From positions 117-64,116 of the forward strand of contig JANQMA010000024.1 in NCBI GenBank assembly GCA_028280285.1: a DNA stretch of 64,000 bases, read 5' to 3'. The notes below the pieces were generated by a model. The model saw only the letters and a program-made list of their open reading frames with translations. It searched no databases and had not been told where the DNA came from. Below are positions 1-39,302 of the stretch, piece by piece (the first letter of the stretch is position 1; each line of letters begins with the position of its first letter). The DNA is from Candidatus Omnitrophota bacterium. Its GTDB lineage: Bacteria > Omnitrophota > Gorgyraeia > Zapsychrales > Zapsychraceae. The translations under genes and the position numbers were made by a program.

Positions 1-78
1 GTGAGCACCGCAGGTGCGAAACGAAAATCCTGCCCCCGCAACCAATTTTTCCTTGTGCTCCACGAGGAAAAAGATAAA

Positions 79-118
79 AACCCGTTCACTCCCCCCTGGG
101 AATGGACGGGTTTTTTGT
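79..118 (+). terminator. Rho-independent terminator-like hairpin (stem CCCGTTCA/TGGACGGG) followed by a T6 run, ending a gene that lies upstream of the window
   Basis: Inverted repeat 81-88/104-111, then tttttt at 112-117. Confidence 0.45.
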
Positions 119-173
119 GTTGAGGTAGAATTAAGTCTGTTGACGACATTTCCCTAATCTGTTTTAATACTTC

Positions 174-1172
174 ATGCCGCAAACACCTGCACCCATTAAA
201 TCTTATCATCAACTCTTAACTGCGATCCGCTCGACGGTAATGCAGTCGCGTAACACCATCGAGCGCACGTATGTCGCGATGTATTGGAATGTCGGACAGG
301 CGATTGATGCGTATATCAGTATCAACGGGCGCTTAAACGAAGACGGCACAACCGTTTTTAAACAACTCAGCGAAGATATTGAGGTCGATCAGCGCACGCT
401 GTATCAAGCGCATGATATGTACCGCGCTTATCCGCGTATTGATTACACATTGCCCTTAAGCTGGTCCCATTACCGGACACTCGCCCATATCAAATCGGCC
501 AAAGAGCGCAAGCGCTGGCAAGAGCGCATTATCCGCGAGAAATTAAGTGTGGCGCAGTTCAAGCAGGCCTTGCAGGCTCACGCAACGACGCAAAGTCAAA
601 AAAGGCCGCGTTCCGGGCGTCAACTCAAACCGATCAGGGGCAAGCTCTATCATTATCGTTTGATCAAGGCCGCGTCTATCAATCGACAACAAGATAAAAT
701 TGTCATTGATTGTGGTTTTAACAATCATGTCGACGTGCCGGCGTCATCGTTTGAACCGACGAATAAACGCATTGTGGCGTCCGTCAAAAACGATCGAGGA
801 TACTATACGATCAAACAAACCAAAGCAACCAAGGCCGATCTTTATACCTATATAGCTGCGGTGGAAAGGGTGGTCGATGGCGATACGCTCATTGTGTATA
901 TTGACTGCGGCTTTGGCATCTTTCGCCGGGAGCGCTTGCGCCTTAAACATGTCGACACACCCGAGATGACAACCATTGCCGGTAAACGCGCCAAAGCATT
1001 CGTAGAAAATGAACTGAAAAAATGCGCATTTGTGATCATCAATTCCTACTGGGAGGATGCCTACGGACGGTATTTGGCGGATCTATTTTTTCAGCCCGGT
1101 GAATCCGATCCGCATGTTGTGGCCGCCACCGGCATGCACCTCAACCAACTCCTATTGGATGAGGGCTGGTGA
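174..1172 (+). CDS. Nuclease-like fusion protein: DUF1016 (YhcG-type) N-terminal domain plus a staphylococcal-nuclease (SNase/thermonuclease)-like C-terminal domain
   Basis: The N-terminal ~145 aa carry the YhcG_N signature (YWNVGQ ... LSWSHYRTL). The C-terminus has the SNase motif VVDGDTLIVYIDCGFGIFRRERLRLKHVDTPEM. There is an internal partial duplication (KIVIDCGF / LIVYIDCGFGI). Confidence 0.7.
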   Translation: MPQTPAPIKSYHQLLTAIRSTVMQSRNTIERTYVAMYWNVGQAIDAYISINGRLNEDGTTVFKQLSEDIEVDQRTLYQAHDMYRAYPRIDYTLPLSWSHYRTLAHIKSAKERKRWQERIIREKLSVAQFKQALQAHATTQSQKRPRSGRQLKPIRGKLYHYRLIKAASINRQQDKIVIDCGFNNHVDVPASSFEPTNKRIVASVKNDRGYYTIKQTKATKADLYTYIAAVERVVDGDTLIVYIDCGFGIFRRERLRLKHVDTPEMTTIAGKRAKAFVENELKKCAFVIINSYWEDAYGRYLADLFFQPGESDPHVVAATGMHLNQLLLDEGW

Positions 1173-1177
1173 TCTAT

Positions 1178-1200
1178 TAAATAGTGCCAGGCACTATTTA
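1178..1200. repeat. REP-like palindrome, family 1 (TAAATAGTGCCaGGCACTATTTA), 5 nt after the stop codon
   Basis: Perfect 11-bp arms. The same palindrome recurs at 12588-12610, 22755-22775 (half-site), 29327-29337 (half-site), 48197-48218 (variant) and 49716-49744. Confidence 0.7.
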
Positions 1201-1210
1201 TACTTCAGTT

Positions 1211-1264
1211 AGAGCGGGCAAAGCTATGGGATTAAGGAGCAGGGAAACCTGCTCCTTTTTTTTA
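1211..1264 (+). terminator. Copy 1 of a ~55-bp direct repeat that ends in an intrinsic terminator (GGAGCAGG-gaaa-CCTGCTCC plus T9)
   Basis: Hairpin 1236-1255 and T-run 1256-1264. About 90% identical to 3381-3431. Confidence 0.6.
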
Positions 1265-1364
1265 ACTTTTCCGCCCCGTCATTTTTTGCTACACTGCCTG
1301 CGTGCCGAAAGCCTTAAGCAAAACAACGAAAACTTCTTACTAAAAATTCCTGCAAATAAATAAA

Positions 1365-2987
1365 ATGGACCAAACGTACATATTAACACCGCTACTGAAA
1401 CGAGCAGAAGAGCTTGATTTTACATTGAATGACCATTACGTGAATCTTCTTGAAGTGGGCCATGATGCATTACTGGCCCGTATTCACTTGATTCGCTCGG
1501 CTCAAAAAAGCATTTTAATCCAAACGTTTATTTGGCGTGATGATGAAGTGGGTTTAAAGATGCTTTTAGAGCTTTTTAAAGCGGCCAGACGCGGCGTTAA
1601 AGTCAAAATTCTTATTGATTACTGGGTGCTAAACAAAGAAAAAGGTCTTTTTAAATATATCAATTTTCAACACGAAAATTTTGAAATATTGATTTATAAC
1701 CCTTCCGGGAAAAGTCTTAAATTATCTGAATTAGAAATATTGCAGGCCGTCACCGTTGATTTTGAAAAGATCAATCATCGCATGCACAATAAAACATTTA
1801 TTATCGATGAGAAAATTGCTATTGTCGGTGGACGCAATTACGATAATATGTATTATGACCGTGGAAGTCGAATGAACTTCATTGATTTGGACCTTATGGT
1901 CATGGGTTGTGTTGTTAAAGATATACAGAAATCCTTTCATCTTTACCGGAATTGCGGCTTGTGCATCCGGCCTTTTGATTTTAAAGATATTGATCAAGAC
2001 TCTATTGATGTTTGCGAAGAGCGTCTGCAGAAAGCCTTTGCACGTTTTGCAGTGAATCTCTTTTCCGACTTGGATGCACAGCTGAGTGATGAAGCCTGCC
2101 TCAATGAAAAGTTTATTAAACCTGCCCTTAAAACCGATAAAATCCGTTTTGCTTATGACAAGCCGGAACTTGAATTTCGAATACAAGAAAGGCTTAACAG
2201 CGGCGTATTAAAAGATTTGGATGATTTGGTCCTTAATGCCAATGATTCTATACTGATACAGTCACCCTATTTTGTTTTAAGTCGTGAAGCGATTAAAGCG
2301 ATTAAAGAATTAGGGCGCACAAAGCCTAAACTTAAGATCACCGTTTCAACCAACAGTCTTGACGCTACAGATAATTTGTTAGCCTACGCCTTTTTAAATA
2401 AAGAAAAACATCTCTACACGAAAGATCTTAAAATCGATATTTTCGAAATGAAATCTAAACCAAACAATTTGAAAAAACTTGTTCATAATGATCTTTGGCA
2501 GAAAGGTAAGACAGAACATAAATATTTATGCATTCATGCCAAAGTGTTTATTATCGATAATCAAGTTTCATGTGTAGGAACCTATAATGCCGATGTGCGC
2601 TCTGAATATTTCAATACCGAGATTGCGTTAATCATTGATGATAAACACATCACGCAAGCCATAAAGCAAAGAATCACACAGTTAATGGAGCCCGTCAACA
2701 GCTGGACGGTTGCGCCCACCAAATATATACCCATTATCACAGAATTCAACGATCTTATGACCAAGCTATCCCACACGCTGCCGGTCATTGATCTGTGGCC
2801 GTTTCGCAATGTGAAATGCTATCAGTTAAAGGAAGGGCGAGCCCCTTTAGAAACCTTTCATCCTGATTTCCATATCCATTACCACCGGGTTGATCTACTT
2901 CCACAAGTCATGCGAAAACTAAAGGAAAAAAGAATAGTTGTCAGCCTGATTCAAATGTTCGGCCAGATCATTAAGCCGTTGGTCTGA
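1365..2987 (+). CDS. Phospholipase D superfamily protein with two HKD motifs (PLD nuclease / cardiolipin-synthase-like fold)
   Basis: HKD motif 1 is HRMHNKTFIIDEKIAIVGGRN and HKD motif 2 is HAKVFIIDNQVSCVGTYNAD. No obvious TM segments. Confidence 0.8.
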   Translation: MDQTYILTPLLKRAEELDFTLNDHYVNLLEVGHDALLARIHLIRSAQKSILIQTFIWRDDEVGLKMLLELFKAARRGVKVKILIDYWVLNKEKGLFKYINFQHENFEILIYNPSGKSLKLSELEILQAVTVDFEKINHRMHNKTFIIDEKIAIVGGRNYDNMYYDRGSRMNFIDLDLMVMGCVVKDIQKSFHLYRNCGLCIRPFDFKDIDQDSIDVCEERLQKAFARFAVNLFSDLDAQLSDEACLNEKFIKPALKTDKIRFAYDKPELEFRIQERLNSGVLKDLDDLVLNANDSILIQSPYFVLSREAIKAIKELGRTKPKLKITVSTNSLDATDNLLAYAFLNKEKHLYTKDLKIDIFEMKSKPNNLKKLVHNDLWQKGKTEHKYLCIHAKVFIIDNQVSCVGTYNADVRSEYFNTEIALIIDDKHITQAIKQRITQLMEPVNSWTVAPTKYIPIITEFNDLMTKLSHTLPVIDLWPFRNVKCYQLKEGRAPLETFHPDFHIHYHRVDLLPQVMRKLKEKRIVVSLIQMFGQIIKPLV

Positions 2988-3121
2988 GATTTTAACCGGT
3001 GGTTATAATAAGAGACAGCGCCTTAATTTCCCCTAACTGATAACCAATGCCCAATTGTTGTTACTGAGATTAAATAGTGCCATAAATAATGCATCGCAGT
3101 ATTTAACTATTTATTATTTTC

Positions 3122-3160
3122 TTGACAATACATACATTTGTGTGGTATAAAAAATACCCC
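3122..3160 (+). promoter_or_regulatory. Near-consensus sigma70 promoter (TTGACA-18-TATAAA with upstream TGTGTGG) driving the tRNA
   Basis: cTTGACAatacatacatttgtgtggTATAAAa. Shares TGTGTGGTATAAA with the promoter at 14076-14110. Confidence 0.5.
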
Positions 3161-3213
3161 CCCTAAGAAGTAAAATTCCATATAAGTTGTACGCTTATTT
3201 ATTGGCAGAAAGT

Positions 3214-3286
3214 ACCCCTATAGCTTAATTGGATAAAGCCCACTCTGGCGATGTTGGAGATGTGAGTTCGAGTCTCACTAGGGGTA
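3214..3286 (+). tRNA. tRNA gene with a clear cloverleaf: acceptor ACCCCTA/TAGGGGT, D-arm GCTT-AATTGGATA-AAGC, T-arm GTGAG-TTCGAGT-CTCAC. The anticodon arm pairs poorly when folded by hand, so the isotype is unresolved (possible GGC loop CTGGCGA)
   Basis: Manual fold. Conserved U8, A14, G18G19, A21 and the T-loop TTCGAGT are present. No CCA is encoded. The anticodon stem has only 3 of 5 pairs in the best register. Confidence 0.55.
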
Positions 3287-3380
3287 TAGTTTTTTCTGTC
3301 TACTTCGGGAAAGGGCCAGAGCTTTCCCGGAACAATATTTTCTTGAAAAATTATTTAGAATAGATATACTTAATATAGTC

Positions 3381-3431
3381 AGAGTGGGAAAAGCTATAGG
3401 ACAAGGAGCAGGGAAACCTGCTCCTTTTTTT
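3381..3431 (+). repeat. Copy 2 of the ~55-bp direct repeat with terminator (GGAGCAGGGAAACCTGCTCC plus T7). It is preceded by a sigma70-like promoter (TTGAAA 3343-3348, 16 nt, TATACT 3365-3370), making it a candidate ~55-nt sRNA
   Basis: Hairpin 3405-3424. Repeat of 1211-1264. The promoter spacing places the TSS at about 3377. Confidence 0.4.
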
Positions 3432-3509
3432 GTTCCACAATCGTTTAACTGTGTTATACTATCTCAATTATTCCCCCCTCGGTTTTCCCCTTAAACACAG
3501 GAGGAAAAC

Positions 3510-3584
3510 ATGTCTCAATTAATTCCCGAAGAAGTGGAATGGGAGTCTTTAAGATTCCAATTTGGAAGCTTAAAGCGAGGGTAA
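3510..3584 (+). CDS. 24-aa microprotein (MSQLIPEEVEWESLRFQFGSLKRG) with a strong SD (AGGAGGaaaacATG) and its own promoter-like TGtTATACT
   Basis: RBS spacing is ideal. The ORF is short and uncharacterised. Confidence 0.3.
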   Translation: MSQLIPEEVEWESLRFQFGSLKRG

Positions 3585-3602
3585 CACCCTAAATACTGAC
3601 CG

Positions 3603-3631
3603 TTGACAAAATCATATTTAAGTATTATACT
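3603..3631 (+). promoter_or_regulatory. Sigma70 promoter TTGACA-17-TATACT upstream of the Fic gene
   Basis: cgTTGACAaaatcatatttaagtatTATACT. A further TATAAT lies at 3675-3680. Confidence 0.5.
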
Positions 3632-3687
3632 AGTAGAAAATTAGTAGTTATTTTATCATAAATAATTGGTATATAATGGTTTAATAT

Positions 3688-4923
3688 ATGAATACTAATG
3701 AAAACATAGAAAAAGAATTTATTAATAAACGGTATCTAAGTAAAGAGGAAGTAGGATACCGTGTACCAAATAATCTCTCGCTGGAGGATTATTGGGGAAG
3801 CATCCAGAAGGCTCGACATCAGCGTGCTGTAAAAATGCCGTTTGAAGATCAGGAAAAGCATCCATTTTGGTTTGTACTAACTTCTTCTTTGCAGCAAAGT
3901 CTTCATGAGATTGATTCTTTAGGCAGAGACTCTATATATCGGTTGGTAAGAGAAGAAATTGAATCAGAAATGATTCAAGATTCATTAATGGAAGAGGCTG
4001 TCTTTTCCAGCGCTATTGAAGGCGCATTTTCCACGGTTAAACGCCTTAAGGAAATGGTGAATAAAAAACAAAGCCCGGAGGATATTAATGACAAGATGGT
4101 GTTTAATAATTATGAAGCCATGCAGTTTATTCTTAGAGAAAAACATAGAAATTTAGATATTGATCTTATTTTAGAACTACAAAAGATTGTCACAAAAGAT
4201 ACTATGGGCGAGGATGATGCAGCCTACTCCGGAAAATTTCGAGACGATTGGGTATACGTTAAAGACAAAAGAGACAGAGTGATTTATACTCCCCCCCATG
4301 CTGATCAAGTTTTACCTGCTATGGAAAAACTTGTTCAATGGATTAATCAGGAAAATGACGACGAATTTATTCACCCTATTATTAAAGCCGCATTTGTACA
4401 TCTTTACTTTGTCCATATTCACCCATTTTTTGATGGCAATGGAAGAACAGCGCGTGCGCTATTTTATTTTGATTTGATAAAAAATGAGTACGAATTTTTT
4501 AAATATTTCTCAATATCTGTTGCTGTTCAAAAAGCTAAAGGCAAATATTATAAAGCCATCCGTAATTCTGAAACACATGAAGGAGATTTTACATTTTTCC
4601 TTCTTTACATGGCAAAAACAATTCTTGAGTCTATTCATCTAGTTAAGTCAAGAATTGCACATCATTACCAAAAAGAATTGGTTATACAGCGCTTGAATAA
4701 GGAAGGCGTTTTATTAAATGGGCGACAAGAGAAATTTGTTAAACGTTTTTTTGTGATCGATCAACGGGTCATTACACTCAAGAAGTACCAGAGTTGGTTC
4801 AAAGTGGCTTACGAAACGGCTAGGCGCGATCTGGATGAGCTTTCGAAATGGAAGGTTTTAACGAAAGGAAAGCAAGGCAAGGCCTTCGTCTATCGCCCAA
4901 ATAATGAATTTGGCATTCAGTAA
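3688..4923 (+). CDS. Fic/Doc family protein (AMPylase-type), class II with an internal inhibitory motif
   Basis: Fic motif HPFFDGNGRTARAL. The N-terminal inhibitory helix motif S-x-x-x-E-G (FSSAIEGA) is on the same chain. Confidence 0.85.
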   Translation: MNTNENIEKEFINKRYLSKEEVGYRVPNNLSLEDYWGSIQKARHQRAVKMPFEDQEKHPFWFVLTSSLQQSLHEIDSLGRDSIYRLVREEIESEMIQDSLMEEAVFSSAIEGAFSTVKRLKEMVNKKQSPEDINDKMVFNNYEAMQFILREKHRNLDIDLILELQKIVTKDTMGEDDAAYSGKFRDDWVYVKDKRDRVIYTPPHADQVLPAMEKLVQWINQENDDEFIHPIIKAAFVHLYFVHIHPFFDGNGRTARALFYFDLIKNEYEFFKYFSISVAVQKAKGKYYKAIRNSETHEGDFTFFLLYMAKTILESIHLVKSRIAHHYQKELVIQRLNKEGVLLNGRQEKFVKRFFVIDQRVITLKKYQSWFKVAYETARRDLDELSKWKVLTKGKQGKAFVYRPNNEFGIQ

Positions 4924-5199
4924 TATATTAGTAATTCGATTTAACGTAAATCGTTGTTATATAGCAATTTGCGGGTATATTACTAATAACCTGTCAAACC
5001 GCGTATTGAAAAATCACATAGCGCTATTTTCCAAATATAACACTTTTCCACCATCTAGGTAGAATACTGTCTGTAGACGGGGTGCGGGTGTTCTGCTTAT
5101 AATAGCAGAATAATAACGGGGACATGTACAGCATTCGATTGATGAATTATGTACGTGTCCCCGGAATAAAAAAGCAAACACGACACCACAGCCCGGCTT

Positions 5200-6069
5200 A
5201 TGATAAACTTTCCTTACACCGACACAAAATTCTCAACCCTTACCAGCTATATCATGGCCTTATGCGCCCGGCGCGTCTATGATGATGACGCGGGTGCCAT
5301 TCAAACATTTTGCACCGACACACTCGGCACCAATCAATTCACATTTTTAAACCAAGGCGCCACCCAAGCCTTTGTGTGTGCGGATACGCGTTTTACCCTC
5401 ATTTGTTTTCGCGGCACGACGGATATTGATGATTGGATGACCAATATCAAGGCCAAGCTCATTGACGCGCCGATCGGCCGCGCGCATAAGGGATTCACCG
5501 AAGGGCTTGATGCCGTCTATCCGCAGATCCTTGATTTTATAAATCACCATGCACCCGCCCGCACACCGCTGTGGTTGTGTGGACACAGCCTAGGTGGTGC
5601 GCTCGCAACTCTCTGTGCGCTGCGTTTGAGGCTTAAACGCACAAACATTTGCGGGCTCTATACATTTGGCTCCCCGCGTGTGGTAGACGCAAACGCCGGC
5701 GATTATCTCGCGAGCGTCCTGCCGAACCGCATCTGGCGTTTTGTGAACAATGAAGACATCGTCACCCGTGTGCCGCCGGCATCCATGGGGTATGATCACC
5801 TCGGGCGCATCCGTTATTTTGATAATACAGGCGTGATGCACAAACACATGAGCTACTGGCGCCGGTTTAAAGATCGGGTGAACAGCATCGAGATGCGCGC
5901 CCGCGAGCGCTACCGTGTGCTCCGCCACAACTATCCCGACGGCGTGGCCGACCACAGCATGGACCGCTATATCGACCGCATTGTGCAGAACATGACCACG
6001 GATGAAAAATCCCAGGCCGCCCTCGCCCCCACGCAAGCCGGGGAGTTTTTGGAGTTTGTGAATGGGTGA
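5200..6069 (+). CDS. Class 3 lipase / alpha-beta hydrolase (Lipase_3 family)
   Basis: Nucleophile elbow CGHSLGGALATLCA. The gene is conspicuously GC-rich compared with its neighbours. Confidence 0.75.
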   Translation: MINFPYTDTKFSTLTSYIMALCARRVYDDDAGAIQTFCTDTLGTNQFTFLNQGATQAFVCADTRFTLICFRGTTDIDDWMTNIKAKLIDAPIGRAHKGFTEGLDAVYPQILDFINHHAPARTPLWLCGHSLGGALATLCALRLRLKRTNICGLYTFGSPRVVDANAGDYLASVLPNRIWRFVNNEDIVTRVPPASMGYDHLGRIRYFDNTGVMHKHMSYWRRFKDRVNSIEMRARERYRVLRHNYPDGVADHSMDRYIDRIVQNMTTDEKSQAALAPTQAGEFLEFVNG

Positions 6070-6129
6070 GGGGAATGTTCAATTAAATATACGAAGCCTC
6101 TTATTATTTAAAAAGAATAAAATTCTCTA

Positions 6130-7378: not shown

Positions 7379-7446
7379 ATAATATCATTTTGAACTTGTC
7401 TCGATAAAATGGACACTATTTTTAGAAAAAGAAATAATTTATTTGT

Positions 7447-10400
7447 ATGGAAGATATTGATTTAGCTAACTATATAAAATACTGCCTTGGTTATGTAAAA
7501 CTAACTCAACGTAGGACCTTTGTCTCCCAACAAAGATACTCAACGAATCTACCTAGTGAATACTTTGGTTTAATAGGATTATTAAATTTAGATTTAGATG
7601 GAAAATTAAGTGAGCTCATTAATTTTGAGACATTTTATTCAAATGATCCTAAGAATTTGTCAGAGGAAATTAAAGAAAAATACGAATTCGAGAAAAATCT
7701 AGCAAAAATTATTGACGATATTTATAACAAACATAAAAATGATCAGTTTACTAAACAAATTGTTCTCAACTTTGGGTATTTTGAAATAGAAATGCCTGTT
7801 GAGATTCTAGATGAAGAAGTGGAAAAGGGGGAGGGGGAAGAAAATTTAGAGGTAGAAGTTCAGGTCGATAGATATCCATTGTTTTCTGTTCCAGTAAGAA
7901 TTGAAAAAGAACTTAGTGAAGGGGTTCCACAATATTACGTCTATACCGTAGATCCAGAAATTCACATTAATGTAGGAATGTTAGAGTCTGTATTAGACAA
8001 TGACTTATACTACCAATTGGTAGAAAAGTTGGGAGAATATGAGAATAATGAAAAGCTAATTCTCCCTATCACTGAAGATGCGATATTTGTAGAAATATGG
8101 CATTTAATCAAAGCTCAGTTAAAATTAAAAGATGTAGCATTCGATGAAAAGTCTTTCAAATTAGAAGAAATACACATTTCTTTAGGGGCAAGATCAAATT
8201 ACTTCTTAGCAGAAGATTTACATAAATTGTCGAAGCTTAAAGAAAAAGATTTGTCTGGTACTTCTTTGACAAGTTGGACAAATAATGAAGGGTTAAGTGC
8301 AGAATCTAATATTCCAGGAGAAAAAGAATTATACTTTCCATTCTTATACGATAAGTTTCAACTAAGGGTTCTTAAGGTCATCAATAATAAAGCATCTGTA
8401 ATACAAGGGCCGCCTGGTACTGGAAAATCAGAAACAATATCAAATTTGCTTTGTCATTTAGCTGCTAATGGCAAGAAAGTTTTATTTGTAAGCCAAAAGG
8501 CACAGGCTTTAAAGGTAGTAAAAGATAAACTCAAGAAGTTAGATATACCATATTTGTTTGGTTACCTACCCAACCCCGCTTCAGCGCAATTAAATGAAAT
8601 TGATGAAGAGGATGGAATAGCTATTCAGCTAACTGCATTGGGTTCTTTAATCGAAAAAATGAGTTATGAAAATCAAAAAAATAATAGCTCTAATAAGTCA
8701 TTAGATAGTGTTGTTAAGAAGAAGCAAGGAGTTCAAAGCGGTTTTATTGATGGGATTGAGTGCGAAAGAAAAGTTTTTAATTTGATGGGGGAGTTGAATG
8801 CTCTTAAAGAATATGATTTGGAATTGGTAAATTTAGCTGATTTTAGTCTTAACTTTTCAAAAGACGAGAGAGATTTTATTAGAGGATTAATTTTTGATAT
8901 TAATAGAGTTGAGGATCAAATTTCTCAATATAATTCATCAACCAATGAGAATAGCTATAGAGATTTATTTAGTACTGTGGATTTTAGCGCTCAAAAATAT
9001 TTTGATGTTTTGGAGAAATTTAAAGAGGACTATTCTAAATCTGGGTATGATCGAAATAATAAAATTATACGAAAATGTAATAACTTTATAAGAAATTTTC
9101 GTCTGGGTAAGCAAAGGTCAAAATTACCAAGGGAAATAGTGAATTATATTGATAGCTTGGTTAATGATGATATCTCAAAAAGCGTTGGGCTTAAGAAATT
9201 AAGCGACCTTTCTGAGTATATTCTTTTTTGTGAAAATAATTTTTTAAATGAGGATTTGAATAAAAAATTAATAAATGCATGCTCCAAAAACGGTATTAAT
9301 TTAGAATTGCTTGATAAAATGGATGCTTTTGTTGAAAGCACAAAGGCTAGAGATGTTGATCAGGTTAAAGAAAGGATATTAAAGGTTAGTGCTTTAAGAA
9401 ATGAAATTGATGATTTAAAAAAAGACAATGATTTAGATTTAAATAGATACTCTAGTGATATGCAAAATATACATAATGACCGAAGTAAGAGAATTGCACT
9501 TTATTTGAAGAATATTATTAATAAAGATCTTATGAATAGTTGGAAAGGCAGTGTCTCCGTCAAGCAAATAATTACAAAATTAGCTAAAGCATTTGGCAAG
9601 TCTAAGAAAGCGTTTAAAACGTTTGATAAATTGAGAAATGATCCAAATAACTTCAAAACGATCCTTAACTTAATACCAATTTGGACTATGGAATTAGACG
9701 ATGCAAGTCGAATTGTTCCTTTGGAGGCAAATTTATTTGACTATGTAGTATTAGATGAGGCTTCACAATGTAATATTGCGTATACTTTGCCAGTAATGTT
9801 TAGAGCTGGTAAGGCCGTATTTGTAGGAGATAGTGAACAGATGCGTGATAGTACTATAATGTTTAAATCTAATAGATCTTTTGACGAGCTAGCAAAAAGA
9901 TACAAAATTCCTGAAGAGTTACAAATAAAGTCAACGGGCTCAGCAGTTCAGTCTATCTTAGATATTGCAACATCAAGAGGGTTTTGGTCAACGCCTCTGA
10001 GATTTCATTATAGATCGCCAAGCGAGTTGATAGGTTTTAGTAATAAATCATTTTATAAACCTAAAGGAAAAGAATTAATTCCTTTGAACAATAGTTATTT
10101 GGCATATAAAGATACTAATAGAGTGATGCTTACTCATAGGATCAAACCTGATTGGAATAAAGAAATTTCCGAAAAAGTAAATGTTGCAGAAGCTAAAGCT
10201 ATTCTTGAGTTCTTTAAGGAAATAAAAAAAGATGACTATCTTAAAGATAAGTCTGTAGGAATATTATCATTTTTTAATTCTCAAGCTACGTATATTCGAG
10301 AGTTGTTTGAGAAAGAGGGGTTTAAAGAAGATGAGAATAATTATAAAGTAAGTATTATTGAAGGTATTCAAGGAGACGAAAAGGATATAATTATTTATTC

Positions 10401-10983
10401 ATTTGTAATTAAATCGCCAGATCAAAAGAATAAATACTACCCTCTAACAGGGGAAGGGGGGGATATACGAGGTGATATAAATCGTGGACGAGTAAACGTT
10501 GCGTTTTCAAGAGCGCGATTGCAGGTTCACTGTTTTACGAGTTTAGATGTAAATGATATGCCAGATAAAATTTGGTTAAAGAAATATCTCGAATATGTTG
10601 AGAAACAAGGTAAGGTCGACTTTTATTCAACAGAATTAAAACCATTTGATTCCAATTTTGAGAAAGAATTTTATGGTTTTACTAGAGAAAAGCTAGATCA
10701 GAATTATTTAATTCAGAATCAAGTAAAAAGTTGTGGTTTCAAGATAGACTTTGTAATTACAAATTCTAGTACAGGGAAAAGAATTGCAGTTGAATGTGAC
10801 GGACCTACTCATTTCAAGAATGAATTGGATGAAGAGCTTGATATTTATGTAGATAGTGATGAAGAAAGACAAAGAGTTTTGGAAGCAGCGGGATGGAGAT
10901 TTTATAGGTTGAAGTATTCAGACTGGATTAATCCTGATTTTAAAAAAAACAAATATATTGAGGAAATGAAAGCATTGCTTTAG
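7447..10983 (+). CDS. Superfamily-1 (Upf1/DNA2-like, AAA_11/AAA_12) helicase with an N-terminal DUF4011-like region and a C-terminal DUF559 (Vsr-like PD-(D/E)xK) endonuclease domain
   Basis: Walker A is GPPGTGKSETISNLL. Helicase motifs are VLDEASQ and the RNVAFSRAR-like GRVNVAFSRAR. The C-terminus FKIDFVITNSSTGKRIAVECDGPTHF ... AAGWRFYRL is DUF559-type. Confidence 0.8.
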   Translation: MEDIDLANYIKYCLGYVKLTQRRTFVSQQRYSTNLPSEYFGLIGLLNLDLDGKLSELINFETFYSNDPKNLSEEIKEKYEFEKNLAKIIDDIYNKHKNDQFTKQIVLNFGYFEIEMPVEILDEEVEKGEGEENLEVEVQVDRYPLFSVPVRIEKELSEGVPQYYVYTVDPEIHINVGMLESVLDNDLYYQLVEKLGEYENNEKLILPITEDAIFVEIWHLIKAQLKLKDVAFDEKSFKLEEIHISLGARSNYFLAEDLHKLSKLKEKDLSGTSLTSWTNNEGLSAESNIPGEKELYFPFLYDKFQLRVLKVINNKASVIQGPPGTGKSETISNLLCHLAANGKKVLFVSQKAQALKVVKDKLKKLDIPYLFGYLPNPASAQLNEIDEEDGIAIQLTALGSLIEKMSYENQKNNSSNKSLDSVVKKKQGVQSGFIDGIECERKVFNLMGELNALKEYDLELVNLADFSLNFSKDERDFIRGLIFDINRVEDQISQYNSSTNENSYRDLFSTVDFSAQKYFDVLEKFKEDYSKSGYDRNNKIIRKCNNFIRNFRLGKQRSKLPREIVNYIDSLVNDDISKSVGLKKLSDLSEYILFCENNFLNEDLNKKLINACSKNGINLELLDKMDAFVESTKARDVDQVKERILKVSALRNEIDDLKKDNDLDLNRYSSDMQNIHNDRSKRIALYLKNIINKDLMNSWKGSVSVKQIITKLAKAFGKSKKAFKTFDKLRNDPNNFKTILNLIPIWTMELDDASRIVPLEANLFDYVVLDEASQCNIAYTLPVMFRAGKAVFVGDSEQMRDSTIMFKSNRSFDELAKRYKIPEELQIKSTGSAVQSILDIATSRGFWSTPLRFHYRSPSELIGFSNKSFYKPKGKELIPLNNSYLAYKDTNRVMLTHRIKPDWNKEISEKVNVAEAKAILEFFKEIKKDDYLKDKSVGILSFFNSQATYIRELFEKEGFKEDENNYKVSIIEGIQGDEKDIIIYSFVIKSPDQKNKYYPLTGEGGDIRGDINRGRVNVAFSRARLQVHCFTSLDVNDMPDKIWLKKYLEYVEKQGKVDFYSTELKPFDSNFEKEFYGFTREKLDQNYLIQNQVKSCGFKIDFVITNSSTGKRIAVECDGPTHFKNELDEELDIYVDSDEERQRVLEAAGWRFYRLKYSDWINPDFKKNKYIEEMKALL

Positions 10984-11027
10984 AGTTTTTTGCAATTACT
11001 TATGAGATGATTCTTAGATGAATCTGG

Positions 11028-11038
11028 GTTCTGACATC
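11028..11038. repeat. Partial REP family 2 copy (GTTCTGACATC), right half only. It resembles 19598-19637
   Basis: tatgagatgattcttagatgaatctgggttctgacatcatttt versus tatgagataattcttacataaatctgttctgacaccattt. Confidence 0.5.
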
Positions 11039-11045
11039 ATTTTTT

Positions 11046-11567
11046 ATGGATTCCTATTTTTTAAAAGAAAGTATTTTGCTTATTATTGCAGGATGTATTG
11101 GGTATTTTTCTGCGATAAGAGTACAAGATAGAGAAAGAAATTGCAATTTTAGGAATATGATTAAGATTCTGTATGGTGAGATGGAGAGTGCATATAGAAT
11201 TTTGTTTATTGGTGATAATCAAATTTATTCTGGAGATTTAAGAAATATTTTGATGAATTATAGAAAATTTAACTTAAGAAATTATGAGGCTATTCTTCCA
11301 GAAATCATTGGGCATAAATATTTTGAAAGAAATTGCGGATTTTTTAAAAAAATAGATTATATCTATTTATTATTAGATGAGATAAATGATCGGATAAATG
11401 CAATGATTCCTTATAAGGATGACTTAAATAATTATTGCGTAGATCATAAAAAGTTAATAGATTTAATGGATGAGGTTCGTCATTATTATTCTAAAGATAT
11501 AACACATAGCTCTAATGCTAAATTTGAGGAAACAGAATTATACAAAGGTTTTAAATCACTTTTTTAA
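11046..11567 (+). CDS. Hypothetical protein with an N-terminal TM anchor, in the AT-rich module
   Basis: An ORF with TM helix ILLIIAGCIGYFSAI and no recognisable domain. There is no clear RBS. Confidence 0.4.
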   Translation: MDSYFLKESILLIIAGCIGYFSAIRVQDRERNCNFRNMIKILYGEMESAYRILFIGDNQIYSGDLRNILMNYRKFNLRNYEAILPEIIGHKYFERNCGFFKKIDYIYLLLDEINDRINAMIPYKDDLNNYCVDHKKLIDLMDEVRHYYSKDITHSSNAKFEETELYKGFKSLF

Positions 11568-11618
11568 TTAGTAACAATTAATAAATATCTAGATACGAAT
11601 TCTATTTTTTGATTTGAA

Positions 11619-11846
11619 TTAATAATTAAGAAGTTTGGAAGGGGTTGTCTTCAGGGCTTTTGCTATTTTGAATAAAACTTGAAGTGATGGAAGGTCAGCT
11701 TGAGAGGTCATTTCCAGTCTTTGCCAATATTTATATGTAATTCCTGCCTTTTCCGCAGCTTGTTCCTGCGTCAATCCTAACTTGCCACGGTAATCCTTAA
11801 CATTTTTGACAAGAATACGTTTAATTTTCTTTTGTGCATTTGTCAT
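11619..11846 (-). CDS. XRE-family HTH transcriptional regulator
   Basis: HTH_XRE motif LGLTQEQAAEKAGITYKYWQRLE. Confidence 0.8.
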   Translation of the reverse strand: MTNAQKKIKRILVKNVKDYRGKLGLTQEQAAEKAGITYKYWQRLEMTSQADLPSLQVLFKIAKALKTTPSKLLNY

Positions 11847-11924
11847 AAGTTTATTATGTAATAAAATACCTTAGCGGTACACTCAGGATAAGGTATGTAA
11901 TATTTCTTTACATATCTTATAGGT

Positions 11925-12125
11925 ATGCATATAATATTGAGCATGAAGGCCGAAAGAGAGGCTATCGCCGATATTAAGAATGCGCTGCAGCATCCCCAAA
12001 CGATTTTGGAAATCATGAAAGATAAGAGGGGTAATCAAAATAAGATTCCGATCGAGGATGTGGATAATGGATTAAAGGCGATTCGCCGGGCGGTCAGGTT
12101 ACTTAATAAATTAGCGAAGTGGTAA
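11925..12125 (+). CDS. Small hypothetical protein (66 aa), divergent from the XRE regulator
   Basis: ORF only. Confidence 0.3.
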   Translation: MHIILSMKAEREAIADIKNALQHPQTILEIMKDKRGNQNKIPIEDVDNGLKAIRRAVRLLNKLAKW

Positions 12126-12595
12126 TGGCAGGAAAGACAAGATACGTGTGGCATAAAATTAGTGCTCTATTTTCATGTAAGAAAGGGGGCGCTCATCAAC
12201 CCCCAAAAGTCATTCTGGTAATCGAAGACAATGACGTCGATATGCGGATTATTGAAAAGAGTCTTAAGGGGCTTAATTGCCGGATTCTCAAAGCCACGGG
12301 CGCGGCCGCCGGGCTTGCCCTGGCGCGCCGTAAAGCCCCTGATCTGATTATCCTCGATTGCCTCTTGCCTGAGATGCGCGGAGAGGAGGTCTGCCGCCGG
12401 CTTAAGACAGATGCCAAGACCAAGTCTATTCCGGTTGTCATTCTGACCGTGCTTGAGAACAATATCCTCGATTGCTATGAGGCCGGCGCCACCAAATACT
12501 TAAGCAAACCCATCACCCCCAAAATCCTCCGCCTCGAGGTCCAGGACGCCCTCGCCAACCCCACCCCGGTGATGGATGACGGGATTGATAAATAG
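12119..12595 (+). CDS. Stand-alone response-regulator receiver (CheY-like) protein. GC-rich gene; the N-terminal start is uncertain
   Basis: KVILVIEDNDVD ... LIILDCLLPEMRGEE ... KPI receiver signature. The stop TAG lies inside a family 1 REP palindrome. Confidence 0.7.
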   Translation: MVMAGKTRYVWHKISALFSCKKGGAHQPPKVILVIEDNDVDMRIIEKSLKGLNCRILKATGAAAGLALARRKAPDLIILDCLLPEMRGEEVCRRLKTDAKTKSIPVVILTVLENNILDCYEAGATKYLSKPITPKILRLEVQDALANPTPVMDDGIDK

Positions 12596-12610
12596 TACCC
12601 GGCACTATTG
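12588..12610. repeat. REP family 1 palindrome (ATAAATAGTACCCGGCACTATTG) overlapping the stop codon of the preceding gene
   Basis: Palindrome arms AATAGTACC/GGCACTATT. The TAG at 12593-12595 is embedded in it. Confidence 0.65.
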
Positions 12611-12675
12611 ATTTCTGCGTGCATTAGTATCACAAACTGTGACACCTTAAAATGAATGGGTTGGAAAAGTTTAAA

Positions 12676-12696
12676 CCGGTCGCAAATTGCGACCGG
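12676..12696. promoter_or_regulatory. Perfect 21-nt palindrome CCGGTCGCAAATTGCGACCGG, copy 1 of 3, upstream of the ORF6N gene. Candidate operator
   Basis: Read directly from the sequence. Related copies lie at 13015-13035 and 13052-13076. Confidence 0.5.
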
Positions 12697-12805
12697 TCCA
12701 AAACTTGACACTTCGCTTTCATCCCGCTAGAATAATCGCATCCCTCCAGAAGTTACCTATCACTAAAAACTTTCGATTTCTCCTATAAATACGAAGGAGA
12801 AGTGT

Positions 12806-13726
12806 ATGTCAACCAAAGTAAATCGATCACATAATAAAAAATTACTCCAAAGCAAGATCTACACCATACGTGGCCTACAGGTCATGTTGGATAGCGATTT
12901 AGCCGAGTTCTATAATGTAGCTGTAAAAAGATTGAATGAACAAGTTAAGAGGAATGTTGACCGGTTTCCGAAAGAGTTTAGATTTCAGATCACCAATAAT
13001 GAATATAATGCTCTAAGGTCGCAATCTGCGACCTTAAAAGAGGGTAAAAACTTGAGGTCGCAAATTGCGACCTCAAGTTCTAAACATGGAGGAAGGAGAT
13101 ACCAGCCATACGTATTTACAGAGCAAGGTGTGGCTATGCTTTCTACCGTGCTTAATAGCGAACAAGCCATAAAAATGAGTGTTCAAATTATCAAAGCATT
13201 CGTAAGTATGCGTAAGTTGATAGCCAATAATGCACTTGTTTTTCAAAGATTGGAGAAAGTTGAACAAAAGCAATTAGCCACAGATGTTAAGCTAGATCAA
13301 GTTTTTGCGGCTATCGAGGCTAAGGACATAAAACCCCAACAAGGTATATTCTTTGATGGGCAGGTTTTTGATGCGTATGTATTTGTGTCGAAACTCATTA
13401 AAAGCGCTAAAAGATCAATCATATTGGTTGATAATTATATTGATGAATCGGTGCTGATGCTGCTTTCTAAAAGAAAAAGCAAGTGTGCTGCCACTATTTA
13501 TACTAAAACTATTTCTAAAAAACTACAGTTGGACTTAAAGAAACATAATGAACAATACTCCCCCATAGAAATTAAATCATTCAAAAATGCCCATGACCGA
13601 TTTTTGATTTTGGATGAAAAGGAAATCTATCATATCGGCGCATCGTTAAAAGATCTGGGTAAAAAATGGTTTGCTTTCTCCAAGTTCGATAAACGAATCT
13701 TGGACGTTTTAAAAAGATTGCGGTGA
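12806..13726 (+). CDS. ORF6N-domain protein (phage-type DNA-binding N-terminal domain) with an uncharacterised C-terminal half
   Basis: N-terminus KIYTIRGLQVMLDSDLAEFYNV ... YQPYVFTEQGVAMLSTVL is typical of ORF6N. The coding region contains two copies of the palindrome at 13015-13035 and 13052-13076, which produce the repeat LRSQSATL / LRSQIATS. Confidence 0.65.
   Translation: MSTKVNRSHNKKLLQSKIYTIRGLQVMLDSDLAEFYNVAVKRLNEQVKRNVDRFPKEFRFQITNNEYNALRSQSATLKEGKNLRSQIATSSSKHGGRRYQPYVFTEQGVAMLSTVLNSEQAIKMSVQIIKAFVSMRKLIANNALVFQRLEKVEQKQLATDVKLDQVFAAIEAKDIKPQQGIFFDGQVFDAYVFVSKLIKSAKRSIILVDNYIDESVLMLLSKRKSKCAATIYTKTISKKLQLDLKKHNEQYSPIEIKSFKNAHDRFLILDEKEIYHIGASLKDLGKKWFAFSKFDKRILDVLKRLR
13015..13076. 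repeat. Two palindromes (AAGGTCGCAATCTGCGACCTT and TTGAGGTCGCAAATTGCGACCTCAA) inside the ORF6N coding sequence
   Basis: The core GGTCGCAAwyTGCGACC also occurs at 12676-12696. Confidence 0.6.
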
Positions 13727-13750
13727 AGTTAGGGATAATAGGAGGAAATC

Positions 13751-14041
13751 ATGAAAGATTATTTTTTCAATACACAAATTGTTATTTTAGTGTCCCGGCA
13801 GGAATCCGGGATTTTAAAAAATCTGGTGATTTATGAGCCTTGGATTCTGGATAAACTAGAAGGCATAGATTGGTTTGAGGATTGTGCATGGCTAGAATTT
13901 GATTGGGAGGAAATAGAAGATTTAGAATCCGCACTCCAGGCACACATAACAGATTCAGGATTATCTTTAGGATTGAAACAATTGTTGGAGAAAATCCAAC
14001 ATATTATATGTGAGTATAATAATTTCACACTAGGATACTAA
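13751..14041 (+). CDS. Small acidic hypothetical protein (96 aa) with a strong SD
   Basis: RBS aataGGAGGaaatcATG. No recognisable domain. Confidence 0.45.
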   Translation: MKDYFFNTQIVILVSRQESGILKNLVIYEPWILDKLEGIDWFEDCAWLEFDWEEIEDLESALQAHITDSGLSLGLKQLLEKIQHIICEYNNFTLGY

Positions 14042-14075
14042 AAGAAATACTACCCGGCACTAGTTATTTTCTCTT

Positions 14076-14110
14076 GATTAACACTCATATGTGTGGTATA
14101 AATGGTGAAC
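14076..14110 (+). promoter_or_regulatory. Sigma70 promoter TTGATT-17-TATAAA with the TGTGTGGTATAAA motif, a twin of the tRNA promoter
   Basis: TTGATTaacactcatatgtgtggTATAAAt. It is followed by about 280 nt with no ORF before the toxin gene. Confidence 0.45.
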
Positions 14111-14392
14111 CTGCTTCGCTGCAATACTGCGTTTGTTTTCACTCAATGTTTTCACGTTGAGCTCAAACAATGCTCGTGTTGGCTACGCATAAAAGATGCA
14201 GGCATCTTTTAAAGTTCGCTGTAACAATTTATGTCGCTTGGCTCCATAAATTGTACGCTCACTTAGCCCCCCTAAGAGTTCTTTTACTACAATAATTCTA
14301 GTCTTGATTTCCTCATAATTTTATACCTTGGCGGCATGTCATATTACATTGAAAACTATGCCACCTAGTGGTATAGTTTAAGGGAGAGGTGT

Positions 14393-14770
14393 ATGAGGTG
14401 CTTAAAGCATAAGTGGTTTGAAAAAGATTTAAAGCGTTATCACTTGGATGATCAATATGTGTGTAATATTTTAGATGATATTTCTGCAGGAAGGGCTGTT
14501 GCGCTTGGAGGAAAAATTTATAAAATCCGTGCGTCACGTAAAGGACACGGCAAAAGCGCGGGTTTTCGCAATATTTTCTTTTGGAAGCGCGATGAATTAA
14601 TTATACTCTATACTATTTTTAGTAAAAATGAACGCGATAATTTAACAGTAAGCGAATTGGAATCTTTAAAAGATTTATCTCGAACATACGATAAATTGAC
14701 AAAAAAAGAAATGGATTTGGTAATTCAAAATAACATTCTAGTGGAGGTTCATGATGATAAAAAAAGGTAG
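14393..14770 (+). CDS. RelE/ParE-superfamily toxin, HigB2-like
   Basis: GGKIYKIRASRKGHGKSAGFRNIFFWKRDELIILYTIFSKNERDNLT resembles the HigB2-type toxin core. It overlaps the next gene by 20 nt. Confidence 0.65.
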   Translation: MRCLKHKWFEKDLKRYHLDDQYVCNILDDISAGRAVALGGKIYKIRASRKGHGKSAGFRNIFFWKRDELIILYTIFSKNERDNLTVSELESLKDLSRTYDKLTKKEMDLVIQNNILVEVHDDKKR

Positions 14771-15077
14771 CACGCATTCTAAAATTATGGATATGGTTGA
14801 GGAAAGTCTTCTTGATTTATCTAAGATTAAAGATGTATCAGTGAGCCTCAAAAAGTTTTATAAGCTCAAATACCCTGAACCAAAACAGTTTAAAAAAGCA
14901 GATATTATCCGTCTTAGAAAAAAGTTAAATGTCAGTCAGGCAGTGCTCGCGCGCGTGCTTAACGCCAGTGAAAGCACGGTGCGCAAGTGGGAAGCCGGGG
15001 ATAAAGAACCGGGCGGCGCTAATTGCCGGTTGCTACAAATTTTAGAAAACAAAGGGCTTCAAGTTTTAAGTAATTAG
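14751..15077 (+). CDS. HTH (XRE-type) antitoxin, HigA2-like
   Basis: LNVSQAVLARVLNASESTVRKWEAGDKEPGGANCRLLQIL is the HTH plus conserved C-terminus of HigA2-type antitoxins. Translationally coupled to the toxin. Confidence 0.65.
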   Translation: MMIKKGSTHSKIMDMVEESLLDLSKIKDVSVSLKKFYKLKYPEPKQFKKADIIRLRKKLNVSQAVLARVLNASESTVRKWEAGDKEPGGANCRLLQILENKGLQVLSN

Positions 15078-15107
15078 CGTCAGGCACTATTTATGTAGGA
15101 GAATATT

Positions 15108-15392
15108 ATGAAAAACAAACATATCGGCAGTAGTTTTGAAGATTGGTTGAAGGAAGAAGGGATTTTTGAAGAGGTAGAAGCGGCGGCCACCAAACATGTG
15201 ATTGCTTGGCAAATTCGTCAAATTATGAAAAAGAAAAAATTAACCAAAACCGAAATGACTAAGCGGATGAAGATTAAAAATCGTAATCAACTTGATCGTT
15301 TGCTTGATCCTAAAAATGAATCCGTCACACTATTAACATTGGCAAAGGCGGCAACCGCTTTAGGGAAGAAGTTGCAGATCAAGTTGATTTAA
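15108..15392 (+). CDS. Small HTH DNA-binding protein of an antitoxin-like XRE family
   Basis: IGSSFEDWLKEEGI ... LTKTEMTKRMKI ... LDRLLDPKNESVTLLTLAKAATALGKKL is a pattern seen in antitoxin-type HTH proteins. Confidence 0.55.
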   Translation: MKNKHIGSSFEDWLKEEGIFEEVEAAATKHVIAWQIRQIMKKKKLTKTEMTKRMKIKNRNQLDRLLDPKNESVTLLTLAKAATALGKKLQIKLI

Positions 15393-15420
15393 ATTGAAAC
15401 TTATGCCATACCCAAGGAAT

Positions 15421-15449
15421 TTGACAAGCCTTGGCTTGTATTGTATGAT
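15421..15449 (+). promoter_or_regulatory. Consensus sigma70 promoter TTGACA-17-TATGAT upstream of the cpATP-grasp operon
   Basis: TTGACAagccttggcttgtattgTATGAT. Confidence 0.55.
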
Positions 15450-15491
15450 TTAGGCATATATTAGGCAACGATGTCTTAATCTTAATAGGTA

Positions 15492-18695: not shown

Positions 18696-18697
18696 CG

Positions 18698-29304: not shown

Positions 29305-29333
29305 TCCCCTTCGTCTTCGCATTGCATTAAATA

Positions 29334-30220: not shown

Positions 30221-30396
30221 CAATTCTTACATTCTCAAAAAAACAAGAAATGGCTTTGAATCAAGCCGATTATCCCTATAATAAAATTATAATTTGCGTA
30301 AACATTTGAAAATAAACAAGATAAAAATGTTAGCTTAAAGTAGAGTTTTGACAGTTGTCTTAGTGTGCCTGAAGTACGAAATCTATAGGAGGGATT

Positions 30397-37104: not shown

Positions 37105-37383
37105 TGCCTGTAAACAGCGCCACTTACAAATTAGTACATGATCCGTACATAACCAATCTGGGTTGTTTAATTCCTCCTTTCATTTATGATAAGACTATAA
37201 TGCCTCATCTGTTGAGTGAAGCCGGTAGTGCGGTATTTTTTTTACGAAATTGCTTGTGTTTTAGATTTAAAAAGGAATAATAACTGTATAGGATCATAAA
37301 TTACTGAAAACAAACAAGATAGAAAAAAATCAGTTTCAAAAAGAATAAAGTCACTCTGTTATGTGACCGACGGAGAGTAAGAA

Positions 37384-38154: not shown

Positions 38155-38184
38155 GAGACATATTAGCTTGACCATTTTTCTTTT

Positions 38185-39273: not shown

Positions 39274-39302
39274 AAAGTGAAAAAGTAAAGGAGAGATAAA
39301 TA

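Follow-up and report, generated by a model that had tools for sequence, protein, structure and literature searches.

A mosaic island of defence and accessory genes, probably gathered piecemeal, in an uncultured Omnitrophota lineage

Defence islands, in which unrelated stand-alone defence genes gather, are well known in cultured bacteria and have been little described for the phylum Omnitrophota. Some of the systems to which such genes can be compared have been characterized: SoFic brings about abortive infection through AMPylation and has a small downstream antitoxin open reading frame (ORF), AS1 (PMC12249575), and a representative of the heterogeneous PDC-S05 family protected E. coli from T7, T5, and T4 (bioRxiv 10.1101/2024.09.26.614923). 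Gene exchange between Omnitrophota and Patescibacteria has been reported in groundwater (PMC12455944). Here we analyze a 64-kb window, meaning the whole stretch of 64,000 nucleotides (nt), from contig JANQMA010000024.1 of a Candidatus Omnitrophota bacterium. An earlier note on this DNA had described positions 1 to 15450 as a typical defence/mobile island next to a tRNA gene. In our judgment, positions ~1 to 15450 are probably a chromosomal island of defence and accessory genes in an uncultured Omnitrophota lineage, to which small self-contained units were added horizontally on at least five or six separate occasions, as opposed to the insertion of one integrative element. The clustering of defence, toxin, and regulator genes that the earlier note recognized holds up well; the mobility that it implied does not, as 1 to 15.4 kb holds no integrase or recombinase gene.

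The first line of evidence is composition. In 500-nt windows, GC content is ~0.49 at 1 to 1250, 0.33 to 0.41 at 1250 to 5000, 0.54 to 0.57 over the lipase stretch (5250 to 6000), 0.26 to 0.34 between 6000 and 11750, where GC skew reaches +0.47, 0.49 to 0.53 over the receiver stretch (12000 to 12750), and 0.35 to 0.38 from 12750 to 15500, beyond which it is ~0.46. GC content and GC at third codon positions (GC3) alike thus confirm the repeated switches that had been seen by eye, with GC-rich lipase and receiver genes lying in AT-rich DNA. The 39 genes at 15.5 to 64 kb have a GC3 of 0.440 +/- 0.060 and a maximum |z| of 2.16; on this scale, |z| exceeds 2.5 in 7 of the 16 genes at 1 to 15450 and in none of the 39 downstream genes. 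The outliers fall in both directions, with the lipase (+3.4) and receiver (+2.9) genes on the high side and the genes for an Ion_trans-like protein (-4.2), a 173-aa protein (-4.1), the helicase (-3.3), the HSDR_N_2 protein (-2.7), and HigB2 (-2.6) on the low side, and the GC3 variance ratio is 5.5 (Levene p = 3e-4). GC3 separates at least five or six blocks within the island: the SNase gene (0.56), the phospholipase D (PLD) gene (0.39), the Fic gene (0.32), the lipase gene (0.64), a block of four low-GC genes (0.19 to 0.28), a small ORF with the receiver gene (0.52 to 0.61), and the run from the ORF6N gene to the last helix-turn-helix (HTH) gene (0.29 to 0.41). Composition is therefore not uniform, and 1 to 15450 deviates from its host in the manner of integrative islands; the k-mer signal is moderate only, with a moderately low tetranucleotide correlation of 0.80 to 0.85 between 6 to 12 kb and the rest of the window. 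All but one of the 16 genes lie on the plus strand, on which all genes below should be placed unless we state otherwise. Most of the 16 are equipped with a consensus promoter or a terminator of their own. Near-consensus promoters are found at 3603, 11907, and 12705, plus one at 15421 for the cpATP-grasp operon downstream, and hairpin terminators are present.

The second line of evidence is gene content. Pfam reproduced every domain call of the earlier note: DUF1016_N with SNase, two PLDc_2 domains, Fic, Lipase_3, HSDR_N_2, AAA_11/AAA_12 with MTES_1575, HTH_3, Response_reg, ORF6N, and RelE (PF06296) with HTH_3. Within 15.4 kb, genes of mutually unrelated defence and toxin-antitoxin classes cluster (SoFic-like, Hhe/PDC-S37-like, type IV restriction endonuclease-like, PDC-S02, PDC-S05, and HigB2/HigA2). 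Strong PADLOC matches (E <= 1e-30) occur for 3 of the 16 island proteins versus 0 of the 39 others (Fisher p = 0.02, against a background of 48 kb only), and the downstream proteins that match PADLOC models at E <= 1e-10 do so through generic domains only (protease, amino-acid transporter, receiver).

The leftmost of these genes (174 to 1172; GC 0.495) encodes a PDC-S02-like nuclease with DUF1016_N (2.7e-10) and SNase (6.6e-5) domains, whose PADLOC PDC-S02 match (4.6e-15) is confined to the N-terminal part. We considered this fusion as a possible novelty and rejected the idea, because 434 representatives of 50%-identity clusters match it at E <= 1e-30, mostly over their full length, and so constitute a large family. 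The PLD-superfamily gene that follows (1365 to 2987) encodes a soluble enzyme with PLDc_2 matches (1.1e-30) and two canonical HxKx4D motifs. Membership of the superfamily is secure, but the nuclease function that had been attached to it is unproven, because the most similar NCBIfam model is that of ClsB, a cardiolipin synthase, at 98 bits (cut-off 281), with DrmC at no more than 47 bits (cut-off 133); no relative of this protein was found in the PDB. The Fic gene (3688 to 4923) encodes a SoFic-like class II AMP-transferase with a C-terminal winged HTH (wHTH) domain (Pfam Fic 8.2e-21; PADLOC SoFic 7.9e-52, 174.8 bits). Its catalytic motif HPFFDGNGRTAR is intact, its N-terminal inhibitory motif SSAIEG places it in class II, and its PDB relatives are FICD and SoFic; against the NCBIfam SoFic equivalog NF046030 it reaches 73.5 bits of the required 550. 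A small antitoxin ORF of the AS1 kind was sought downstream of this gene, and no convincing candidate was seen there.

The PD-(D/E)XK protein with an HSDR_N_2 domain (6566 to 7378; Pfam 9.8e-6) belongs to a large stand-alone family with 2070 homologs at E <= 1e-10, for which source annotations give "predicted type IV restriction endonuclease." It matches the phage family phrog_17239 over its full length (3.9e-82), and a Thermus phage homolog is annotated as a restriction endonuclease. On a 1.1-Mb contig, a homolog has TIR, NucS-like, XRE, and PhdYeFM genes for neighbors, a defence-like setting. Its gene has no conserved partners, and its neighbors differ in every context that we examined. In the window, it overlaps the preceding gene by 17 nt, so that a stand-alone voltage-sensor-like gene is translationally coupled to a type IV restriction-like gene. 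That upstream gene (6130 to 6582; GC 0.25) encodes a 150-aa membrane protein that matches Ion_trans (1.1e-6) over profile positions 4 to 116, the S1-S4 part, and carries an S4-like Arg/Lys repeat, RIFRIVRSLKFLKVLNKLK. The partner gene is absent from two other contexts of HSDR_N_2 homologs, the 1.1-Mb contig included. Single-sequence AlphaFold2 (AF2) modeling of the voltage-sensor-like protein gave a pLDDT of 68 and a pTM of 0.38, too poor to use, and a fold search returned nothing significant (E ~2).

The helicase-nuclease gene (7447 to 10983) illustrates the movement of single units. Its 1,178-aa product joins a superfamily 1 (SF1), UPF1-like helicase to an MTES_1575/Vsr-like endonuclease (Pfam AAA_11/AAA_12 and MTES_1575). 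PADLOC matches it to PDC-S37 (2.2e-73) and Hhe (7.6e-40), and NCBIfam Hhe and ProA score 160.6 of 2000 and 234 of 1500 bits, both below cut-off; the alignments to PDC-S37, Hhe, and ProA run solely over the C-terminal 400 to 440 residues (~740 to 1177). The best 120 homologs, by comparison, are full-length, with at least 96% of the query aligned in all but three, and mostly 52 to 59% identical. Nine of 17 homologs have a taxon in their names, which in each case falls within Patescibacteria (Buchananbacteria, Paceibacterota, Magasanikbacteria, Moraniibacteriota, Gottesmanbacteria, Levybacteria, and "Patescibacteria group bacterium"); among the named homologs at 55 to 58% identity, two carry the label "bacterium" only. 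In three other genomes, the homolog stands in three unrelated settings. In the first, locus L058 (4259 to 10921) of a 52%-GC genome, it lies beside DUF1016, Fic, and PhdYeFM antitoxin genes and is flanked by core genes; the L058 Fic protein is 28% identical to the window Fic, and the L058 DUF1016 gene has no detectable match to the one in the window. In the second it lies ~3 kb from a large serine recombinase gene, and in the third it stands alone amid housekeeping genes, between enolase and recA-region genes. The GC content of the homolog is below the local value in each of the three genomes. No conserved partner of the helicase-nuclease was found, its neighbors changing in every context examined, and because the neighborhoods of the helicase-nuclease and HSDR_N_2 genes vary in this way between genomes, we regard both as independent single-gene units. 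Judged from these sequence comparisons, a single gene in varying contexts fits piecemeal accretion, and the recurrent gathering of the same gene classes is typical of defence islands. A donor pool of low GC content, for instance Patescibacteria, is the probable source of the low-GC block at 6.1 to 11.6 kb.

The right border of the island lies near 15.45 kb, where a GC step, a change in gene content, a consensus promoter, and the start of synteny with relatives all agree. The promoter (TTGACA-17-TATGAT; 15421 to 15449, plus strand) serves a conserved four-gene operon (15495 to 19564) that encodes cpATP-grasp, Alpha-E, proteasome-type, and transglutaminase proteins and whose synteny with Omnitrophota relatives starts at the first gene. 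Pfam recognizes CP_ATPgrasp from 15492, and the earlier note had correctly placed the return of core-like genes at about 15.4 kb. The cpATP-grasp protein is 78% identical to those of two Candidatus Omnitrophota metagenome-assembled genomes (MAGs) and 66 to 70% identical to those of other Omnitrophota and Sedimentisphaerales MAGs. In six such relatives (66 to 78% aa identity), the operon has no counterpart of any of the 16 island genes within 10 kb. In the closest Omnitrophota MAGs (L001 and L047), the operon is preceded by homologs of window positions 42346 to 43754. We observe that these genes, encoding a thioredoxin and an HtrA-like protease (7460 to 8843 in L001), lie directly upstream of the operon in the closest MAGs and 27 kb downstream of it here, a rearrangement with a breakpoint that coincides with the right edge of the island. 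A scan of genome contigs for relatives gave nothing closer than 78% aa identity, and a viral scan for close relatives gave no match. Ten window proteins that we looked up (9 of the 16 island proteins plus cpATP-grasp) are singletons at 90% identity among ~15 billion proteins and are known only from the source contig at NCBI (66,359 bp) and from Logan assemblies of run SRR20820735, the exact-protein look-ups leading to three Logan contigs of that one run.

Several points weigh against reading 1 to 15450 as an island of acquired defence genes. The PADLOC enrichment at E <= 1e-10 is not significant (p = 0.07 to 0.11), the PDC families are mostly untested candidates, and the scores against SoFic, Hhe, and ProA all fall short of the NCBIfam equivalog cut-offs. 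The lipase, receiver, and PLD genes have no connection to defence and may simply be accessory genes of the ordinary kind, the nearest named relatives of the lipase belonging to Omnitrophota themselves, and the tetranucleotide signature is not uniquely deviant, since a native-looking RND efflux operon at 42 to 51 kb correlates equally poorly with the rest of the window. Public collections hold no closer genome, so absence of the island from sister strains is not shown, and the left border and the content upstream of it lie outside the window. One could argue that the region is native, that its composition varies for gene-specific reasons, and that its defence labels are generic domain matches. 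The efflux operon and the lipase relatives would speak for this, as would a synonymous-codon likelihood that is within range for most island genes and the presence of host-type repetitive extragenic palindromic (REP) hairpins. We nevertheless consider it very unlikely: 7 of the 16 genes fall above or below the whole range of the 39 downstream genes in GC3, a measure on which protein constraint has little hold, the named relatives of the helicase-nuclease belong to another phylum, and not one of the 16 genes accompanies the conserved operon in the six relatives.

The tRNA gene that the earlier note had reported at 3214 to 3286 is there, found by ARAGORN (3213 to 3287, plus strand, as Ala-GGC) and by Rfam (3214 to 3286, 49.4 bits), and with a GGC anticodon it is an atypical, tRNA-like gene. 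The G3:U70 pair of the acceptor stem is the identity element that alanyl-tRNA synthetase (AlaRS) requires. It is absent here, the stem reading A1-U72, C2-G71, and C3-G70 in both the Rfam and the ARAGORN alignments. The anticodon stem contains two mismatches (C28xU42 and U31xU39), and the minimum-energy fold puts a 7-bp stem with a 3-nt loop in place of the anticodon arm. The label of pseudogene would still be unwarranted, because the Rfam score falls within the 40-to-67-bit range of 20 other tRNAs scanned and because the gene has its own terminators and its own promoter-like sequence (TTGACA-18-TATAAA with a TGn extension; 3122 to 3151, plus strand, read from the sequence). It has exactly the same T-arm and 3' acceptor strand as a tRNA-Leu(UAA) in low-GC tRNA arrays on two metagenome contigs, an identity that may be coincidental; a metagenome scan with the T-arm and acceptor found only tRNA-Leu genes in such unrelated arrays. 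The two contigs, L054 (5256 to 5340; 33.5% GC) and L055 (8538 to 8622), each present an observation of their own, in that their arrays comprise 9 to 12 tRNA genes, a CUA-anticodon (amber-reading) tRNA included, and they probably derive from phage that reassign a stop codon. Rfam and tandem-repeat scans of the window found nothing besides the tRNA-like gene.

A tRNA-like gene amid DNA of foreign composition invites the explanation that a tyrosine recombinase inserted a classical integrative island at the tRNA, with the integrase lying just outside the window. The source contig is indeed ~2.4 kb longer than the window, and a Logan contig lets us read 121 nt upstream of the window. Those 121 nt hold no integrase where the earlier note had suggested looking for one; together with window positions 1 to 173 (L053 1 to 294) they form a non-coding stretch of ~290 nt in which four strong hairpins follow one another. 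Among the 16 genes at 1 to 15.4 kb, no integrase, recombinase, or transposase was detected with Pfam, NCBIfam, or PHROGs, and the only such mobility gene in the 64 kb is a Y1 transposase gene at 29.5 kb. Nor does the window contain a second copy of the tRNA 3' end that could represent an att site (20 nt with at most 3 mismatches; 16 nt with at most 2). The gene on the 3' side of the tRNA is Fic and not an integrase, and apart from the promoter of Fic, the ~400 nt in between consist of hairpins, a terminator, and an ORF of 24 codons. Because nuclease-type genes typical of the island flank the tRNA on its 5' side as well, the tRNA is internal and not a border, and five or six GC classes are ill-suited to one element. 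Insertion of the island at the tRNA, as the earlier note would have it, is therefore unsupported, and we judge a classical integrative island to be unlikely. In a piecemeal island, the tRNA-like gene would be a passenger or relic rather than an attachment site.

Part of the island may be younger than the rest. In Logan, where the same run was assembled independently, the sequence is broken at 3508 and at 12352 to 12374, so that the interval is exactly one Logan contig; the three contigs (L053, L057, and L056) abut base-for-base at 3508 and overlap by 23 nt at 12352 to 12374. One explanation of these breaks is a mis-join at 3508 in the metagenome-assembled contig, which would make the adjacency of tRNA and island an assembly artefact, and as this junction falls between genes, an uninterrupted reading frame cannot serve to confirm it. 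The exact abutment speaks against an artefact, as does the receiver ORF, which reads intact through the 23-nt overlap and therefore argues against a chimeric join at that end; no 31-mer that is repeated within the window occurs near either junction. We hold a mis-join to be extremely improbable. Positions 3508 to 12374 contain no REP copies and are perhaps a younger, strain-variable segment of the piecemeal island. A bolder and, in our view, rather unlikely proposal would combine two claims: that these 8.9 kb are a recent strain-variable cassette, REP-free and with a low-GC core from Patescibacteria, and that the tRNA-like gene, driven by its promoter and with its GGC anticodon, non-alanine acceptor, and 7-bp hairpin, could be a functional island-borne RNA and not a relic. 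If this is true, the cassette would provide a specific example of defence genes that pass between episymbiont-type bacteria of the candidate phyla radiation (CPR) and Omnitrophota.

The "REP debris" of the earlier note turns out to be a real family of 25-nt hairpins, AAATAGTRCCNGGCACTATTTAT, with 5 loci in the window. Each overlaps or follows a stop codon, in four cases that of an island gene and in one that of a core gene. Four of the five lie within 1 to 15.1 kb (binomial p = 0.014), at 1179 to 1203 (AAATAGTGCCAGGCACTATTTAT) and, as sequence matches, at 12590 to 12614, 14045 to 14069, and 15072 to 15096; counted by strand, there are 10 matches versus 0.58 expected by chance. The hairpin was in none of the loci that we fetched from other genomes. 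An IS200/Y1-type transposase gene (29457 to 30188) is bracketed by 18-nt inverted arms (29329 to 29346 and 30208 to 30225) that are 89% complementary, and the first 12 nt of these arms resemble the REP-like hairpin; because of this resemblance, we propose a pair in which the transposase is probably the REP-associated tyrosine transposase (RAYT) of the family. The attC sites of integrons are imperfect palindromes of about 60 to 140 nt after each ORF. We rejected an integron cassette array, since no IntI integrase is present and the hairpins share a stretch of only ~25 nt without extended homology, and so they are not attC sites. A distinct repeat of ~65 nt, which ends in a perfect 29-nt terminator hairpin, occurs on the plus strand after the SNase gene (1196 to 1262) and after the tRNA (3365 to 3431). 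The copies are identical over 29 nt (3403 to 3431 in the second) and ~85% identical over ~40 nt upstream. The pair brackets the PLD gene and the tRNA, and the window has no further copies.

The rightmost genes of the island bear on a further explanation, in which 11.6 to 15.4 kb would be a decayed prophage or satellite remnant, with repressor, anti-repressor, and addiction module, and the rest unrelated accessory DNA. A regulator of the XRE/C-protein kind is encoded on the minus strand (11619 to 11846; HTH_3 1.1e-9) and matches PADLOC capH and Control_protein models at ~1e-8. The product of the ORF6N gene (12806 to 13726; ORF6N 3.2e-33) resembles the anti-repressors of phrog_4792 (1.2e-24) and has partial homologs in metagenomic phages, there are repressor-like XRE matches, and both HigB2 and HigA2 have PHROG matches, as a remnant of this kind would predict. 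The ORF6N protein, however, matches the defence-candidate model PDLC04869 (PDC-S05) over its full length (1.7e-122, 406 bits), host REP-like hairpins lie between the genes, and the region contains no structural, replication, lysis, or integrase gene. A prophage remnant thus strikes us as a rather unlikely source. As defence units of the piecemeal island, these genes would also include a HigB2-type toxin gene with its HTH antitoxin gene (14393 to 15077; RelE/PF06296 5.1e-24; HTH_3 and MqsA-like), in which the toxin comes first and the two genes overlap by 17 to 20 nt. The palindrome GGTCGCA(N3)TGCGACC occurs three times (12678 to 12694, 13017 to 13033, and 13056 to 13072; 0.09 expected), once directly ahead of the ORF6N -35 box and twice within the coding sequence of this gene, where it encodes a tandem LRSQ(S/I)AT peptide. 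The palindrome may serve as an operator, or it may merely result from what the gene encodes.

The remaining island genes are a mixture. The GC-rich class-3 lipase gene (5200 to 6069; Lipase_3 8.2e-26; GC3 0.64) has no evident foreign donor, because the nearest homologs of its product are only 41 to 43% identical and some of them are named Omnitrophica. A 173-aa protein (11046 to 11567) with a hydrophobic N-terminal stretch, a possible membrane helix, has no match in Pfam, PADLOC, NCBIfam, or PHROGs, and its single-sequence AF2 model (pLDDT 35) is too poor to use. The GC-rich stand-alone receiver domain (Response_reg 1.7e-20) and the small ORF before it occupy 11925 to 12595, a 96-aa protein of no matched family is encoded at 13751 to 14041, and the last island gene (15108 to 15392) encodes a 94-aa XRE-type HTH protein (HTH_37, HTH_26). 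The other 48 kb of the window encode transporters, two two-component clusters, an RND pump, HemA, a globin, and similar functions. The two clusters (34420 to 41165 and 51759 to 58841) are organized alike, with a HAMP-HisKA-HATPase-REC-REC hybrid kinase followed by receivers and a PAS kinase, and look like paralogous signaling modules; the first ends with a REC-GAF-GGDEF gene.

Each unit of the island would act alone. The type IV restriction-like protein, the DUF1016_N-SNase protein, and the helicase-nuclease are predicted to recognize and cut invading DNA. The class II Fic protein may be auto-inhibited until infection and would then AMPylate its targets, leading to abortive infection as for SoFic. 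HigB2 would cleave mRNA once HigA2 is lost, so that the infected cell is arrested, and the XRE proteins presumably control expression. The locus is a concrete catalogue of a defence island for its phylum, and one of its defence genes points to Patescibacteria-type relatives, in line with the published exchange between the two groups. It is otherwise an ordinary example. In practice it is of use for the candidate single-gene defence proteins that it supplies, and it also warns that a tRNA gene next to DNA of odd composition is by itself no proof of an integration site.

Set beside known systems, the locus resembles the tRNA-associated integrative islands of the pathogenicity-island type in its tRNA-like gene, foreign composition, and accessory cargo, and differs from them in having neither integrase nor att repeat, an internal and atypical tRNA, and a heterogeneous composition. 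As in REP/RAYT systems, a genome-specific 25-nt palindromic hairpin sits at gene 3' ends and a Y1_Tnp gene has REP-resembling arms; unlike them, the window has only five copies, four of them within the island instead of dispersed in the core. The helicase-nuclease shares with Hhe and ProA an order in which an SF1 helicase core precedes a Vsr/DUF559-type endonuclease, encoded by a single gene in varied contexts. It differs in its length (1,178 aa versus model lengths of ~1,800 to 1,900 aa), in its lack of DUF4011 (Pfam), in scores far under the cut-offs, so that the full-length architecture is not matched, and in taxon-named close relatives that are Patescibacteria. The Fic protein has the HPFxDGNGRxxR motif, N-terminal SxxxEG inhibitory helix, and C-terminal wHTH of SoFic and falls short of the equivalog cut-off. 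The HigB2/HigA2 pair, a PF06296 toxin gene and then an overlapping HTH antitoxin gene, appears at the sequence level to have no difference from the described systems. From defence islands the locus differs in a lipase, a receiver, a PLD enzyme, and a tRNA-like gene without known defence roles, and in its host, an uncultured Omnitrophota-like lineage. Like them, it packs several unrelated stand-alone defence-type genes, a toxin-antitoxin pair, and XRE regulators into DNA of deviant GC content that is free of housekeeping genes, and its DUF1016, helicase-nuclease, Fic, and antitoxin classes cluster again in the unrelated genome of L058.

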